From the NCBI GenBank assembly GCA_050942955.1, contig JBMNOG010000008.1, forward strand, positions 1-59,842: a stretch of DNA of 59,842 nucleotides, read 5' to 3'. A program made the position numbers and the translations under genes. Positions 53,896 through 59,154 of the stretch are shown here, one piece after another. Every line of letters starts with the position of its first letter. Positions within the stretch are counted from its first letter, which is position 1. A model generated the notes under the pieces. It searched no databases. It was given only the letters and a program-made list of their open reading frames with translations, and was not told the origin of the DNA. This stretch comes from Patescibacteria group bacterium (lineage in GTDB: Bacteria > Patescibacteriota > Microgenomatia > UBA1400 > UBA1449).

Positions 53896-54483
53896 ATGTA
53901 TATGGTACAAGCACAACCTGCTCCTAGTAATTCCGTTGATACTAATACAACCCCCAGTCCGTCTCCGGTAAATTCCGATCAGGTTGTAATCGAACCTAAA
54001 GTTCAGAAATCTTCAATTCTAAAACCGGTTACAGATGACCCAGTTACAGAAACTAATGAAAGAGGTAAACCTATGAATAAACTAGTAATTGTAGGACTTT
54101 TTTTAGTAGTACTTCTCGGAATTGGCAGTGGTTATTTTCTATCAGTAACGATGGCAGGTACTTCCGGTGGTCTTGGATATGAACCAGGGCTTAAGAGAGA
54201 GGTTTCAAAAGAAGAGATTACTGTTGGGACCAAAGTTGGCGTTAGAGATGAAAGTACATTTAAAGACAGCGGCGAAGGTATGCTGCAAAAGGGTGGCATA
54301 GATGGAGAGGGATCTCACCACCTGGTGAGGCCAGGCGGAGATTCTCAGACAATTTACATTACCTCGTCTGTTATTGATTTAGACCAGTTTATTGGTAGAA
54401 AAGTAAAAGTTTGGGGTGAGACTATTGGTGCTCAGAAAGCTGGCTGGCTTATGGATGTGGGCAAACTGGAAGTCCTGGAGTAA
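53896..54483 (+). CDS. Hypothetical membrane protein
   Basis: P/S/T-rich N-terminus, one TM, beta-rich C-domain (GEGSHHL...KVKVWG). Confidence 0.7.
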   Translation: MYMVQAQPAPSNSVDTNTTPSPSPVNSDQVVIEPKVQKSSILKPVTDDPVTETNERGKPMNKLVIVGLFLVVLLGIGSGYFLSVTMAGTSGGLGYEPGLKREVSKEEITVGTKVGVRDESTFKDSGEGMLQKGGIDGEGSHHLVRPGGDSQTIYITSSVIDLDQFIGRKVKVWGETIGAQKAGWLMDVGKLEVLE

Positions 54484-54584: not shown

Positions 54585-55286
54585 ATGTCTCAGATAGTAT
54601 TTGACAACGTTACCTACACTTTTCCTAACGGAACCAAAGCAGTTGATAGAGTTTCTTTCGTAGTTGACGAAGGAGAATTTATTTTTTTGGTTGGTCCTTC
54701 TGGGTCTGGGAAAACTACACTGCTCCGTTTGTTGCTTAGGGAAATTTTACCCACTCAGGGAAAAATATTGCTCGATGGGGAAGAGGTAAGTAAGAAAAAG
54801 GGAGTATCAACAGAAAAAGCCAGGCGCAAAATCGGAGCTTCTTTTCAGGACTCAAAATTACTGCTAGACAGAACAATTGAAGAAAACATTGCGTTATCCA
54901 TGGAAATTGTAGGAAAGAAAAGCAGCGAGATAAAAGAATCCGTCCAGGCTGTACTGGATTTGGTTGGTTTGTCTGATAAAGCTGAGATGTTTCCGGCTCA
55001 GCTATCCGGTGGCGAGATTCAAAGGGCAGGGATTGCAAGGGCAGTTGTAGGTGATCCCATTATCATTTTTGCTGATGAACCAACAGCTAACCTTGATGAA
55101 GAGGCTATGTGGAAAATTATTTCACTAGTTAAAGAAATCAACCGCAGTGGTAAAACTACTATTGTTGCTACTCATAACGCTGAAGTAGTAGCCTCCATGG
55201 GAGAAAGAGTTTTACGTTTAGAAAAAGGGAAGCTGGTGGAGGATACTAAAACAAAGAAAGAAAAAAAAGAAACAAAAAAGAAATAG
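54585..55286 (+). CDS. ftsE: Cell division ATP-binding protein FtsE
   Basis: GPSGSGKTT, FQDSKLL, LSGGE, ADEPTANLD; upstream of ftsX. Confidence 0.9.
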   Translation: MSQIVFDNVTYTFPNGTKAVDRVSFVVDEGEFIFLVGPSGSGKTTLLRLLLREILPTQGKILLDGEEVSKKKGVSTEKARRKIGASFQDSKLLLDRTIEENIALSMEIVGKKSSEIKESVQAVLDLVGLSDKAEMFPAQLSGGEIQRAGIARAVVGDPIIIFADEPTANLDEEAMWKIISLVKEINRSGKTTIVATHNAEVVASMGERVLRLEKGKLVEDTKTKKEKKETKKK

Positions 55287-55289
55287 CCT

Positions 55290-56168
55290 ATGTCAAAAAC
55301 AATTAGAACTACACTTCATCAAATCAGGCGTACTCCATACCAGGCTTTAGTGGCTACTATTATTCTCAGTTTATCTTTTTTTGCGGTAGCTGTTTTTTCT
55401 CTTATCTCGGCCGGGTCACATCAGGTTCTGAAATATTTTGAGGCTGCTCCTCAAGTAATCGCCTTCTTTGAAAAAGGAAAAGACCTTTCAGATGAGGATA
55501 TATCACGTATCCGCAATCGCCTTGAAGCTACAGGCAAGCTGTCTTCTTTTGAGTATGTTTCTACCAGGCAAGCTGAGCAGATATATAAAGAGAAAAATAA
55601 AAACGACCCTCTCCTTAATGAACTCGTTGACTATAAAATCCTACCGCCTTCAATTGAAATTTCAGCTGTTGAGATTTCGGCTCTAGGAGAATTAAAAGAT
55701 ATTTTGGCTGCGGAACCTTTGGTTACAGATATTGCTTTTTATGAAGATATTGTCGGCCAACTTTCTGTTTGGATCCAGAATATCCGCTATTTAGGGTTAG
55801 GGATGGTAGGCTTTTTACTACTCCTTTCAGTATTGCTGTTAGTGGTTATTATCAGTATGAAAGTGAAAAACAAGCGCCGTGAAATTGAAATTATGCGTCT
55901 GCTCGGAGCCTCAAAATGGTATATTCATGGGCCATTTCTCCTGGAGGGGATGATTTATGGCTCATTTGGTGCCTTTTTCGGTTGGCTGGGGGCTTTTACT
56001 GTTCTTCAGTACAGCACCCCAATGATAGTTGATTGGCTCCAGGAAATTATCACCTTCCCAATTGATATGGTATTTTTATTGGTTCTTCTCGTTGGTATGG
56101 TTTTAGGCGGAATGGTGATTGGTGCTTTCAGTAGTTTAGTAGCTGTCAGAAGGTTTTCTCGCGTCTAA
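55290..56168 (+). CDS. ftsX: Cell division permease FtsX
   Basis: RREIEIMRLLGASKWYI.GPFLLEG; four TMs with an extracellular loop. Confidence 0.92.
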   Translation: MSKTIRTTLHQIRRTPYQALVATIILSLSFFAVAVFSLISAGSHQVLKYFEAAPQVIAFFEKGKDLSDEDISRIRNRLEATGKLSSFEYVSTRQAEQIYKEKNKNDPLLNELVDYKILPPSIEISAVEISALGELKDILAAEPLVTDIAFYEDIVGQLSVWIQNIRYLGLGMVGFLLLLSVLLLVVIISMKVKNKRREIEIMRLLGASKWYIHGPFLLEGMIYGSFGAFFGWLGAFTVLQYSTPMIVDWLQEIITFPIDMVFLLVLLVGMVLGGMVIGAFSSLVAVRRFSRV

Positions 56169-56170
56169 CC

Positions 56171-57400
56171 ATGTCAAAACTAGCCCAACTTACTTTTGGA
56201 AGCAGTCTTCTGAGGAATATCCTTCTAGCTGTCTTGTTGTTTTTCTTGGCTAATAATTTTATTTTTACTCCCTTAAACCTACATGCTGAAGAGAGTGATA
56301 ACAATCAATCACCCCAGTACTGGTTAGATAAGATTGCAGAATATGAGAATAAGATTAAAGAAGCCCAAGGTCAGCAGAAAACCCTAGCTTCTACGATTGA
56401 AGTTCTGAATAACCAGATCTATCTGACCGGGGTTAGAATTTCAAAGACTAAAAGTGAGATTGTTAACCTTCAAGCTCAGATTGAGGATTTGTCCACCAAA
56501 ATTACCCAGCTGGATAAATACCTTGATGTTACTTCGAATGTATTAAACGAAAGAATAGAAGAAACATACAAGCGCTCGTTTTTCCCTTCAATACAATTGC
56601 TGTTTGTTTCCCACAATTTCTCAGACTTTTTTACCCGGGTTAAATACTTGCAGACTGCTCAAAAACATGACAAGGAACTGATGTTTTCTATGGAAGAGGC
56701 TAAGCAAAACTTTGATAAACAAAAAATCTTAAAAGAAGAAAAACAGACAGAGTTAGAAGAATTGGAAGCATTTTTAGAAAGTCAAAATGCAGTTTTAGCC
56801 CAACAAAAGGCTGGCAAAGAAGAGTTACTTAGAATTACTAAGAATGATGAGAAGAGATTTCAGGCACTTCTGGCTCAGGCAAAAGCTGAGTATCAAGCTA
56901 TTCAATCTATTCTTGCTGGGAACGGAGATGAAACAGAGATCGGTGGGGTTTCTGAAGGGGAAAAAATTGCCTCAATTATTAGTGGAAAATCTGCTTGTTC
57001 GACGGGGACACATCTTCACTTTGAAGTTGTCCAGAACGGAGCCCATACAAATCCTGCCTCCTGGCTTTTGTCGCAGGATGTTGATTGGGACTTATGTGGT
57101 TGGTACGGTTGTGATGACACATTTGGCTTTACAGGTTCATGGCGATGGCCTGTAAACGGTAGGCCAAGAATTACTCAAGGGTATGGATCGACAGCCTATT
57201 CCCGATCAGGGGCATATGGAGGTGGTCCTCATACAGGAATTGATCTTGTGGCAGATGACTTGTCTATTCTTGCAGTAAGAGAAGGGATTCTTTATAGGGG
57301 TAGTATTCCTTGCGGTGGCGGAACCCTGCGCTATGTTAAGGTTGAACACAAAGATACTGATATAGCTACCTATTACCTTCACGTAAACTATATAAAGTAA
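56171..57400 (+). CDS. Secreted coiled-coil protein with a circularly permuted M23 metallopeptidase domain
   Basis: Signal peptide, PcsB/EnvC-like coiled coil, STGTHLHFEV located before WP..ITQGYG...HTGID...YYLH. Confidence 0.85.
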   Translation: MSKLAQLTFGSSLLRNILLAVLLFFLANNFIFTPLNLHAEESDNNQSPQYWLDKIAEYENKIKEAQGQQKTLASTIEVLNNQIYLTGVRISKTKSEIVNLQAQIEDLSTKITQLDKYLDVTSNVLNERIEETYKRSFFPSIQLLFVSHNFSDFFTRVKYLQTAQKHDKELMFSMEEAKQNFDKQKILKEEKQTELEELEAFLESQNAVLAQQKAGKEELLRITKNDEKRFQALLAQAKAEYQAIQSILAGNGDETEIGGVSEGEKIASIISGKSACSTGTHLHFEVVQNGAHTNPASWLLSQDVDWDLCGWYGCDDTFGFTGSWRWPVNGRPRITQGYGSTAYSRSGAYGGGPHTGIDLVADDLSILAVREGILYRGSIPCGGGTLRYVKVEHKDTDIATYYLHVNYIK

Positions 57401-57448
57401 CAAAATATCTTCTTGATCAGCTCATCTTTTACTTCTACCATGAGAGTA

Positions 57449-58699
57449 ATGAAAAGGATAATTGTTACATTGCTAGTATTTATCTTTCTTAGTTTATCTT
57501 TAGGTATACAGATTGTAGTTGCAGAAGATCAAAAAGCGGTTACGGTTAAAGATTTTCCTACAGAAATCAAAATTGGAGATGAAGAAAGTCTTTCATTTAG
57601 TGCGGTTCTTGAACCTAATAGTACTTATTACTATAAAGTAAGAGCCGGAGATTCTAAGAGTACAGCAGAAACGTTTAATTCCAGTAGTAATAAGTGGCTT
57701 GGTGATAAATCTGCATGGACCGAATTCCCTCAGCTTGAAACAGGTGAAGATGGACGGATAAAAACAGATAACCAAGCAGTAATGTTCAGGATTAAACAGG
57801 GAACAACTGTTGGCAACACAGAACTGCAAGTAAGAGTTAAAAGTACTGATACTGAGTATAGTTTAGACTCTTCACCTGTTGTAATTACTATACTTACACC
57901 AGATCCTACTCCTACTCCCACTCCCACGCCTACCCCCATGCCAACAACCACTCCGGCTCCTACCCATAACTATGACAACATTACGATCACAGAAATCTAC
58001 CCTTCCCCTAAAGGCGATGGAGAAGATGAAGAGGAGTGGGTGGAAATTTATAATAATAATGACGGGGAGGCTAACCTTAACAGCTGGTATATAAAAGATG
58101 GTGCCGGCAACAAAAAAAGGATAGATAACTTCACTATTCCCGGAAAATCATATGCAACATTTAACTTTAGTTCGGGTTTGCTGAACAACAATGGCGATAG
58201 TGTGATTCTGCTAAACGCTGATGAGCAGGAGAAAGATGCTGTCCACAACTATCCAGAAATTGAGAAAGGTTATTCGTGGGCTAAAATTTCAGGTTCGTGG
58301 TGTCTGTCAAAACCAACGAAAAACGGTCATAATGGTGCTTGTATAACCCTTGCTAACCCTTCGCCTTCCTCCTCACCTTCATCTAGTCCTGAATCTGTTC
58401 TAGGGGCAGCATCTAAAACAAAAAAGTCTGCATTTGAAAATGAGAGTGCTAATTCTGAAGACATGTTAGGAGATGAAAACGGAAGGGATTTACCCCAGCT
58501 TGCCACCCCGTCAGGTAAAGCTCTAGGAATGCTAACAAGTGCAAGTGAAATTACCACACCTTCAGCTTCCAAAAGGCCGACTCCGCTCCTGCCGATTGGT
58601 ATTGCCGGAACAGGAATTATAATGCTGGGAGGGGCAGGTTTTCCCTTTATAAAACCAAAAGTAATTGAATATATAGCTAAAATAAAGTCTCGCCAGTAG
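57449..58699 (+). CDS. Surface protein with a lamin-tail (LTD) domain, PT/PS linkers and a C-terminal TM
   Basis: ITEIYPSP...EWVEIYN, LNNNGDSV, (PT)n. Confidence 0.8.
   Translation: MKRIIVTLLVFIFLSLSLGIQIVVAEDQKAVTVKDFPTEIKIGDEESLSFSAVLEPNSTYYYKVRAGDSKSTAETFNSSSNKWLGDKSAWTEFPQLETGEDGRIKTDNQAVMFRIKQGTTVGNTELQVRVKSTDTEYSLDSSPVVITILTPDPTPTPTPTPTPMPTTTPAPTHNYDNITITEIYPSPKGDGEDEEEWVEIYNNNDGEANLNSWYIKDGAGNKKRIDNFTIPGKSYATFNFSSGLLNNNGDSVILLNADEQEKDAVHNYPEIEKGYSWAKISGSWCLSKPTKNGHNGACITLANPSPSSSPSSSPESVLGAASKTKKSAFENESANSEDMLGDENGRDLPQLATPSGKALGMLTSASEITTPSASKRPTPLLPIGIAGTGIIMLGGAGFPFIKPKVIEYIAKIKSRQ
57905..57937 (+). repeat. CCYACN hexamer tandem encoding (Pro-Thr)n
   Basis: CCTACT CCTACT CCCACT CCCACG CCTACC. 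Confidence 0.7.
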
Positions 58700-58737: not shown

Positions 58738-59154
58738 ATGAAAAAAACATTATTAGCCTGGCTTCCGGTTTGCTTGTGGGCTTTAGTTATCTTTCTCTTT
58801 TCGTCACTTCCAACTATCCCTACCCCTTTTATTATCTGGTGGGATGTGTTCATTAAAAAAACGGCCCACTTTGTAGAGTTTGCCATCTTAGCTATCCTCC
58901 TTTTTAGAGCTTTACATTGGACGTATAAAAAAATAAAAGATCAATCTACATTACTTATTACAACCGGATTGTTTTCCGTTATCTACGCCATATCTGACGA
59001 ATTTCATCAGCGCCTTACCCCGGGTAGGATTCCAACAGTTAGGGATGTTGTCATCGATACTCTTGGAGTGGTAGTAGCTTTATTGGTAATAAAAAGATTT
59101 ACATATTTAAAAAACAAGTATCCAAAGCTTGCCGGTTTTATCTTTTTCAAATGA
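58738..59154 (+). CDS. VanZ family protein
   Basis: KTAHFVEFAIL, YAISDEFHQ...PGR....DV..D. Confidence 0.92.
   Translation: MKKTLLAWLPVCLWALVIFLFSSLPTIPTPFIIWWDVFIKKTAHFVEFAILAILLFRALHWTYKKIKDQSTLLITTGLFSVIYAISDEFHQRLTPGRIPTVRDVVIDTLGVVVALLVIKRFTYLKNKYPKLAGFIFFK

Follow-up and report, generated by a model that had tools for sequence, protein, structure and literature searches.

M23/LytM peptidases have a heavily studied fold. In a Patescibacteria contig, the gene behind ftsE-ftsX was described from its letters as encoding such a peptidase with the C-terminal half of the catalytic domain placed ahead of the N-terminal half, which raises the questions of whether this circular permutation is real, whether the rearranged domain is an enzyme, and how FtsEX would control it. 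The window, i.e. the whole stretch of DNA that was analyzed, spans 59,842 nucleotides, and all coordinates refer to it.

The operon of P0001

The protein, designated P0001, is encoded in the following run of genes.

53896-54483, + strand: 195-aa protein with a single membrane span just 5' of ftsE, without a Pfam or NCBIfam match
54585..55286, + strand: ftsE (ABC ATPase); best NCBIfam match TIGR02673 FtsE, E 6e-73, 245 bits versus a cut-off of 265
55290..56168, + strand: ftsX; PF02687 and PF18075 FtsX_ECD; TIGR00439 E 3e-44, below cut-off
56171..57400, + strand: P0001, coiled-coil and circularly permuted M23 protein, 409 aa, beginning 2 bp past the ftsX stop
57413..58699, + strand: lamin-tail-domain (LTD) membrane protein of the same operon; PF00932, E 1e-13
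58738..59154, + strand: VanZ-family protein of the same operon; PF04892, E 2e-16

Curated models for ftsE, ftsX, EnvC, and PcsB all score below their own cut-offs at this locus. The placement of the M23 gene directly behind ftsE-ftsX was borne out, both here and in a synteny survey of 80 loci retained from 274 genome matches (L075 among them, from the unpublished genome G445). All 80 loci carry the permuted order, ftsX lies immediately upstream of the permuted gene at 77 of the 77 loci with at least 1 kb of upstream DNA, and ftsE is found upstream at 72/72 loci with at least 1.8 kb. Among the 67 loci having enough downstream DNA, the LTD gene is present at 25 and VanZ at 30. A Patescibacterial VanZ-2 operon has been described in which VanZ-2 occurs with an ABC component, a coiled-coil protein bearing a "glycine-glycine peptidase" or papain-like head, and an LTD protein (PMC12419801). 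The ABC, coiled-coil peptidase, LTD, and VanZ genes are all found, in this order, between positions 54585 and 59154, and the operon of P0001 is the one described; the text of that paper names neither FtsX nor a permuted peptidase. The 195-aa protein is present at 72 of the 80 related loci and matches only unnamed Atlas clusters, with scores <0.9. It is a possible candidate for a lineage-specific FtsEX cofactor.

Motif order of the M23 domain

The translation of P0001 was divided into the parts listed below.

56171..56284, + strand: hydrophobic N-terminus, residues 1-38, likely a signal peptide or membrane anchor as read from the sequence
56312..56839, + strand: antiparallel coiled coil, residues 48-223, presumed FtsX-binding stalk (helices in the full-length model; EnvC alignment)
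56849..56914, + strand: restraining-arm-like helix, residues 227-248, with E240, I244, and L248; aligns with EnvC 222-240
56915..56926, + strand: short Gly hinge, residues 249-252, from the arm to the new domain start (G250 in 100/123, G252 in 104/123)
56927..57070, + strand: canonical C-terminal third of M23, now first, residues 253-300, with V..G..I, C276, HxH, and NP
57011-57019, + strand: HxH, H281 and H283 (HLH)
57071..57136, + strand: linker between the canonical C- and N-termini, residues 301-322, with the optional C309/C314 pair
57137..57397, + strand: canonical N-terminal two-thirds of M23, now last, residues 323-409, with WP, ITQGYG, HxxxD, C381, and Y-x-H
57230-57244, + strand: HxxxD, H354 and D358 (HTGID)
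57380-57382, + strand: Y-x-H histidine, H404

The motifs fall within the last 157 residues, in the order given by the preliminary description, with VSEGEKIA (residues 260-267), STGTHLHFEV, and NP followed by WDLCGWYGCDD, WRWPV, RITQGYG, HTGID, and TYYLH. Its statement that the protein ends at TYYLH is nearly correct, but five further residues (VNYIK) precede the stop. The permutation cut lies between the Y-x-H histidine H404 and the V..G..V..G strand, with this strand now at the start of the domain, near residue 253. Residues 301-322 form the linker from the former C-terminus (NP..WL) to the former N-terminus (W-P); it shrinks to a few residues in remote members, P0247 and P0250 among them. 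M23 peptidases are defined by HxxxD, HxH, and a third histidine equivalent to His260 of LytM (PMC9662197). All three motifs (the first as H(x)nD) are present in P0001, but not in the canonical order of HxxxD, histidine, HxH: the third histidine stands ~30 residues before HxH in canonical M23 domains, whereas in P0001 it is C-terminal, ~120 residues after HxH. The Zn ligands (H354, D358, and H283) and the catalytic histidine had been described as apparently intact, unlike in EnvC, and this proved correct; together with H281 and H404, the ligands are invariant in 120/120 homologues.

Profile and pairwise searches detect the two halves as separate stretches. PF01551 matches in two stretches, as anticipated, the best being residues 260-295 against profile positions 63-96. 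The two stretches together score 35 bits versus a cut-off of 28.7, whereas the single best stretch reaches only 24.2, and a genome-level Pfam scan scores one half only, below the cut-off. With phmmer against the PDB, the two halves match 9gy1, 5j1l, and 6muk in reversed order; the C-terminal third of the PDB chains aligns on residues 260-300 and the N-terminal part on residues 346-408. The M23-family chains in the printed PDB alignments are all of canonical order.

Conservation of the permuted order

A homologue search with P0001 returned 804 proteins at E ≤ 0.001 among 1280 candidates. HxH precedes HxGxD by pattern in 119 of the top 120 homologues, query included, and by eye in the 120th, which has an HTH variant. 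Residues H281, H283, H354, D358, H404, and C276 are invariant in the best 120 of the 804 homologues; among 78 diverse homologues, H281, H354, D358, and H404 are present in every one and H283 in 77. Searched with half-profiles, 218 of 268 fetched proteins have the C-then-N order and 29 the N-then-C order, the others being fragments, tandems, and one false match. The named homologues belong to Patescibacteria (Beckwith-, Pace-, Woese-, Shapiro-, Levy-, and Woykebacteria), and several carry the NCBI name "hypothetical". Two runs yielded contigs that could each be the source of this DNA, and these cover positions 55287-57600 with 0-1 differences and no joints. Since all 80 loci share the order and the contigs cross the gene without joints, misassembly, which would have undone the original claim, is ruled out, and the permutation in P0001 is practically certain to be real.

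Predicted fold and cysteine pairs

The AlphaFold model does not consist of two unassembled halves but of one confident domain (pLDDT 93.5, pTM 0.90, 115-sequence alignment); mature P0001 was modeled with a pLDDT of 91.3 and a pTM of 0.77. Foldseek found no PDB match at E ≤ 0.001 for either the domain model or the full-length model, the top match of the latter being a weak one to EnvC (8tzl, E 2.2e-3). In VIA-align, the top 17 rows for the domain model are all M23/LytM-fold structures (Z 3.8-4.9, rmsd 2.3-3.5), aligned over 75-90 residues, mostly model residues 79-168 and hence only the larger half, with only the first and last aligned residues given. Sequential aligners are expected to catch one half of a permutant, which would account for both results. 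For the full-length model, VIA-align returned mostly generic coiled coils. Mean-field covariation (318 sequences, Neff 244, no shuffled control) places 15 links between the halves among the top 30 pairs; this analysis shares data with AlphaFold, so that the two are not independent, and carries phylogenetic signal. The two halves are predicted to come together as a single domain of the LytM type, in which Zn would be bound by H354, D358, and H283.

The four cysteines had been suggested to join the two halves. This may apply to one pair only, C276 in loop 3 of the first half and C381 in loop 2 of the second half, which ranks 10 in the covariation analysis; the idea that all four cysteines do so was rejected, as C309 and C314 are both linker residues. 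These two occur in 67/120 and 69/120 homologues, respectively, as an optional pair within the linker. Among 57 permuted domains, both loop cysteines are present in 31, neither in 19, the loop 2 cysteine only in 6 (in 3 of which the first Cys is shifted one residue towards the N-terminus), and the loop 3 cysteine only in 1. The corresponding numbers for 50 canonical domains are 46 with neither, 3 with the loop 2 cysteine only, and 1 with both. Judged from these sequence patterns, a cross-half C276-C381 disulfide is likely, and it would be optional since 19 of the 57 permuted domains have neither cysteine. P0248 is a canonical-order M23 protein with both loop cysteines, and its position in the tree varies between methods.

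Stalk, putative restraining arm, and comparison with EnvC

The preliminary description placed an EnvC/PcsB-type coiled coil ahead of the M23 domain, in agreement with the alignment of the family profile to E. coli EnvC 19-247. EnvC is the best PDB match of this profile (8hd0_E, E 8.8e-26), and the alignment is gap-free through residue 247 in the arm region. The stalk of P0001 also superposes on 4cgk and 8idc (rmsd ~4 over ~150 columns, with weak E-values). Comparison with EnvC of E. coli (6TPI/8HD0) and V. cholerae (8TZL) reveals a homologous coiled coil through the arm, two alignable M23 halves, and a shared FtsEX context. In contrast to EnvC, which has a degenerate LytM site lacking the catalytic residues (PMC11627006), P0001 has intact ligands, swapped halves, and a linker of ~5 rather than ~40 residues. 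EnvC has a cognate Amidase_3 partner, whereas genomes with the permuted head are usually without Amidase_3. Against the EnvC model NF008644, P0001 scores only 34 bits versus a cut-off of 270. By this comparison P0001 is not an EnvC, although its arm may work in a similar way.

The restraining arm of EnvC comprises residues 222-278 (PMC7668044) and is locked in the LytM groove by L236 and I240, charged mutants of which release it (PMC12505981). I244 and L248 of P0001 align on these two residues, with the registers of VIA-align and the sequence alignment differing by about one turn on EnvC. Among 123 homologues, E240, which precedes I244 by one turn, is Glu in 121, and I244 and L248 are hydrophobic in 118 and 115, respectively. 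VIA-align ranges that begin at model residues 1-3 pair with EnvC 231 (8tzl, 8hd0), NMB0315 129, and ShyB 40; the loop that blocks NMB0315 comprises its residues 130-132, and in ShyB an N-terminal helix plays the blocking part (PMC3202590). Covariation between arm and groove includes I247-L403 (rank 12) and I244-L403 (rank 51), such pairs being few and mostly low-ranked. Residue 403 is large and hydrophobic in 122/123 homologues, and the two couplings fit an arm lying in the groove if L403 lines the groove floor, as its putative position would have it. A Glu at the position equivalent to E240 is likewise present in 16 of 21 canonical heads, indicating that the arm is no peculiarity of permuted proteins. 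Elsewhere in Patescibacteria, coiled-coil M23 proteins of canonical type encoded after ftsX have the same stalk, arm Glu, and slot, and differ in their normal order and longer arm-to-domain linker. More broadly, P0001 shares with LytM, lysostaphin, ShyA/ShyB, NMB0315, and Csd3 (PF01551) the motifs, a fold match on the larger half, and probably a groove-blocking latency.

From the helix end to the domain start there are ~5 residues with two conserved glycines in P0001 versus ~40 in EnvC, where the domain starts at 292. Given that the helix aligns with the EnvC arm, this difference suggests that the permutation probably does away with the long linker of the return path and would tie the domain straight to its blocking helix. 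The distance from the stalk kink to the first motif is 54-62 residues in 20 of 22 permuted proteins versus 77-95 in 11 canonical ones, different motifs being measured in the two groups.

A mechanism can be proposed from these comparisons. By analogy with EnvC, the stalk would be gripped by two FtsX extracellular domains and helix 227-248 would sit in the substrate groove through I244 and L248. E240 could fill the fourth Zn site in the manner of the helix residue Glu74, a fourth Zn ligand in Csd3 (PMC4356371); such a glutamate switch is hypothetical. H281 and H404 are predicted to activate the water, and the predicted C276-C381 disulfide would bridge loops 2 and 3. ATP-driven motion of FtsEX would then pull the helix out, and the domain would cut septal peptide cross-links without a separate amidase.

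PcsB (CHAP), CwlO, and RipC (NlpC/P60) combine a stalk with a self-inhibited head that FtsEX activates directly, without a separate amidase (PMC7668044, PMC11627006). Their heads are papain-fold cysteine hydrolases, whereas P0001 has an M23 Zn metallopeptidase head and no CHAP or NlpC/P60 domain. Amidase_3 was not found in the P0001 genome (97.9% complete), which has Mur ligases and five transpeptidase matches. Among 34 searched genomes with a permuted head, 4 have Amidase_3 and none was found in the other 30. Because Amidase_3 was mostly not found and the slot is filled elsewhere by catalytic CHAP or C39-like heads, the best reading is that P0001 hydrolyzes directly, in the manner of PcsB, CwlO, and RipC. 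P0001 is likely an active enzyme. Control by FtsEX through the arm is probable by analogy, and with similar confidence we take P0001 to be an endopeptidase of peptidoglycan that would be under direct activation by FtsEX and would be held off by its own last helix.

Distribution and origin

The FtsX loop was found in 169 of 171 genomes searched within the phylum. From 150 listed ftsX places, 3 were skipped near a contig end, 7 were left out, and 140 were fetched. The permuted M23 is the commonest head encoded after ftsX, at 34 of the 140 loci in 20 of 72 families (taking in one frameshifted and one 528-aa case), followed by canonical stalk-M23 at 23 loci (9 families), CHAP at 15, and C39-like at 8. 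The remaining loci have a papain-like head without a Pfam match (1), a stalk-less M23 (1), and other genes or a contig end (58); all of these classes were assigned partly by eye. Families f22, f57, and f87 mix head types behind ftsX. The preliminary description suggested a distinct FtsEX effector architecture; the topology is new, but an M23 head with intact ligands is not unique, canonical heads being present at 23/140 loci. Among 32 intact permuted heads, HxxxD is present in 23 by pattern and in 1 by eye, the two residues of the H(x)nD motif stand further apart in 2, and the histidine is missing from 6. All six permuted heads of family f30 (L192, L201, L225, L247, L250, and L259) are without the HxxxD histidine, indicating that loss of the standard site need not entail loss of the permuted fold; from their sequences, these heads are possibly pseudo-enzymes or have shifted ligands.

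To place the permutation in a phylogeny, the realigned halves were used to build a tree (106 rows, 130 columns; one row was dropped for a failed N-half and one row is without the motif). The unconstrained tree needs 4 changes, and a tree with the 57 permuted rows held together is 22.9 lnL higher than the free tree (p-AU 0.83), so that a single origin is allowed but not shown. Tandem canonical M23-M23 proteins occur (P0243 and P0266), and no stalk-bearing duplication intermediate was seen among the fetched proteins.

Alternative explanations

That P0001 works as described while the permutation itself is functionally neutral, the head being interchangeable and fixed by descent, has close to an even chance. 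The canonical M23, CHAP, and C39-like heads in the same slot, the three families with more than one head type, and the arm Glu shared with canonical heads are all consistent with neutrality, and since the p-AU of 0.83 leaves a single origin open, the 34 loci may reflect one event. Neutrality fits less well with the permuted head being the commonest (34/140 loci, 20/72 families), with the short and narrow kink-to-motif distance (54-62 in 20/22), and with a residue 403 that is hydrophobic in 122/123 homologues and coupled to the arm. More tentatively, and at clearly less than even confidence, P0001 can be viewed as an M23/LytM permutant of single early Patescibacteria origin that became the commonest FtsEX head; hung from a blocking helix with a Glu on Zn, it would form a minimal amidase-free switch for septum splitting, and the domain would later have been reused in giant surface proteins.

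Two further readings give the protein another role. As an active hydrolase it might instead act on a host bacterium's cell wall, or on a lineage-specific wall decoration whose making involves VanZ. Patescibacteria have been reported to live as epibionts (PMC12102498), the lipocone paper links the operon to lineage-specific peptidoglycan modification (PMC12419801), and proteins of 0.9-2.2 kaa that lack the stalk carry the permuted domain as well; this is nevertheless unlikely, because the link to ftsEX (77/77) is far tighter than that to VanZ (30/67) or LTD (25/67) and FtsX in 169/171 genomes fits a housekeeping role. It is rather improbable that P0001 is a non-catalytic activator or scaffold whose groove recruits another hydrolase: EnvC, its closest structural relative, and the f30 members that lost the first Zn histidine could be taken to suggest this, but the five catalytic positions are invariant in the clade of P0001 and missing from EnvC (PMC11627006), and Amidase_3 was not found in its own genome or in 30/34 others. 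It is scarcely credible that the order is an artefact of assembly or gene calling, or that the two half-domains are unrelated. The missing Foldseek match to the PDB for the domain and the single, sub-cut-off half seen by the genome Pfam scan would be in keeping with an artefact, whereas the order in 218/268 proteins and 80/80 loci, the joint-free contigs, and the dominance of inter-half couplings contradict it.

P0001 is thus a genuine circular permutant of M23, carried by a stalk of the EnvC type, widespread, and apparently not yet published. Its novelty lies in its topology and not in the enzyme class; its chemistry and FtsEX logic are of already known kinds. No permuted M23 was found among the listings and abstract openings returned by full-text searches of the open-access literature, and the accessible text of an M23 review gives no permuted member (PMC9662197). 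In this sample of a very large phylum it is the commonest catalytic head behind ftsX, and standard tools under-call it, with sub-cut-off scores in the Pfam genome scan, silence from Foldseek, and "hypothetical" names. In it, nature provides a compact case for testing the restraining-arm model of FtsEX signaling on an M23 head that would itself be catalytic, with E240, I244, L248, and C276/C381 as the residues concerned, and hints at how ultra-small bacteria, mostly without Amidase_3, split their septa.

Other M23 genes and permuted domains

Phage and plasmid records yielded no match covering 80% of the domain, and all 63 M23 ORFs in the 62 viral loci examined are of canonical order. A search of 717-2045-residue proteins returned 0 of 253 candidates at E ≤ 0.001, a weak result as long carriers exist. 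P0200, P0207, P0212, and P0241, which are 894-2174 aa long and lack the FtsEX stalk, have a permuted M23 near the C-terminus. In the tree, P0207 falls among copies borne on stalks, which suggests domain reuse. At L027 a second permuted-M23 gene follows the first, and at L024:715-2633 the permuted gene of genome G081 is broken by an apparent frameshift ahead of HxxxD.

Spread beyond Patescibacteria, which the titles of 39 of 80 records (Gammaproteobacteria or Pseudomonadales) might indicate, was not accepted; these records belong to 0.5-1.6 Mb genomes with the same gene order. At least one of the Gammaproteobacteria-titled records (L037-L112) shares its contig place with G148, a genome from the same order as the window, and the titles look wrong. 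The three other M23 proteins of the P0001 genome are all of canonical order. A 950-residue open frame in the same genome (L003, on G000:C40) carries a canonical M23 near its C-terminus.
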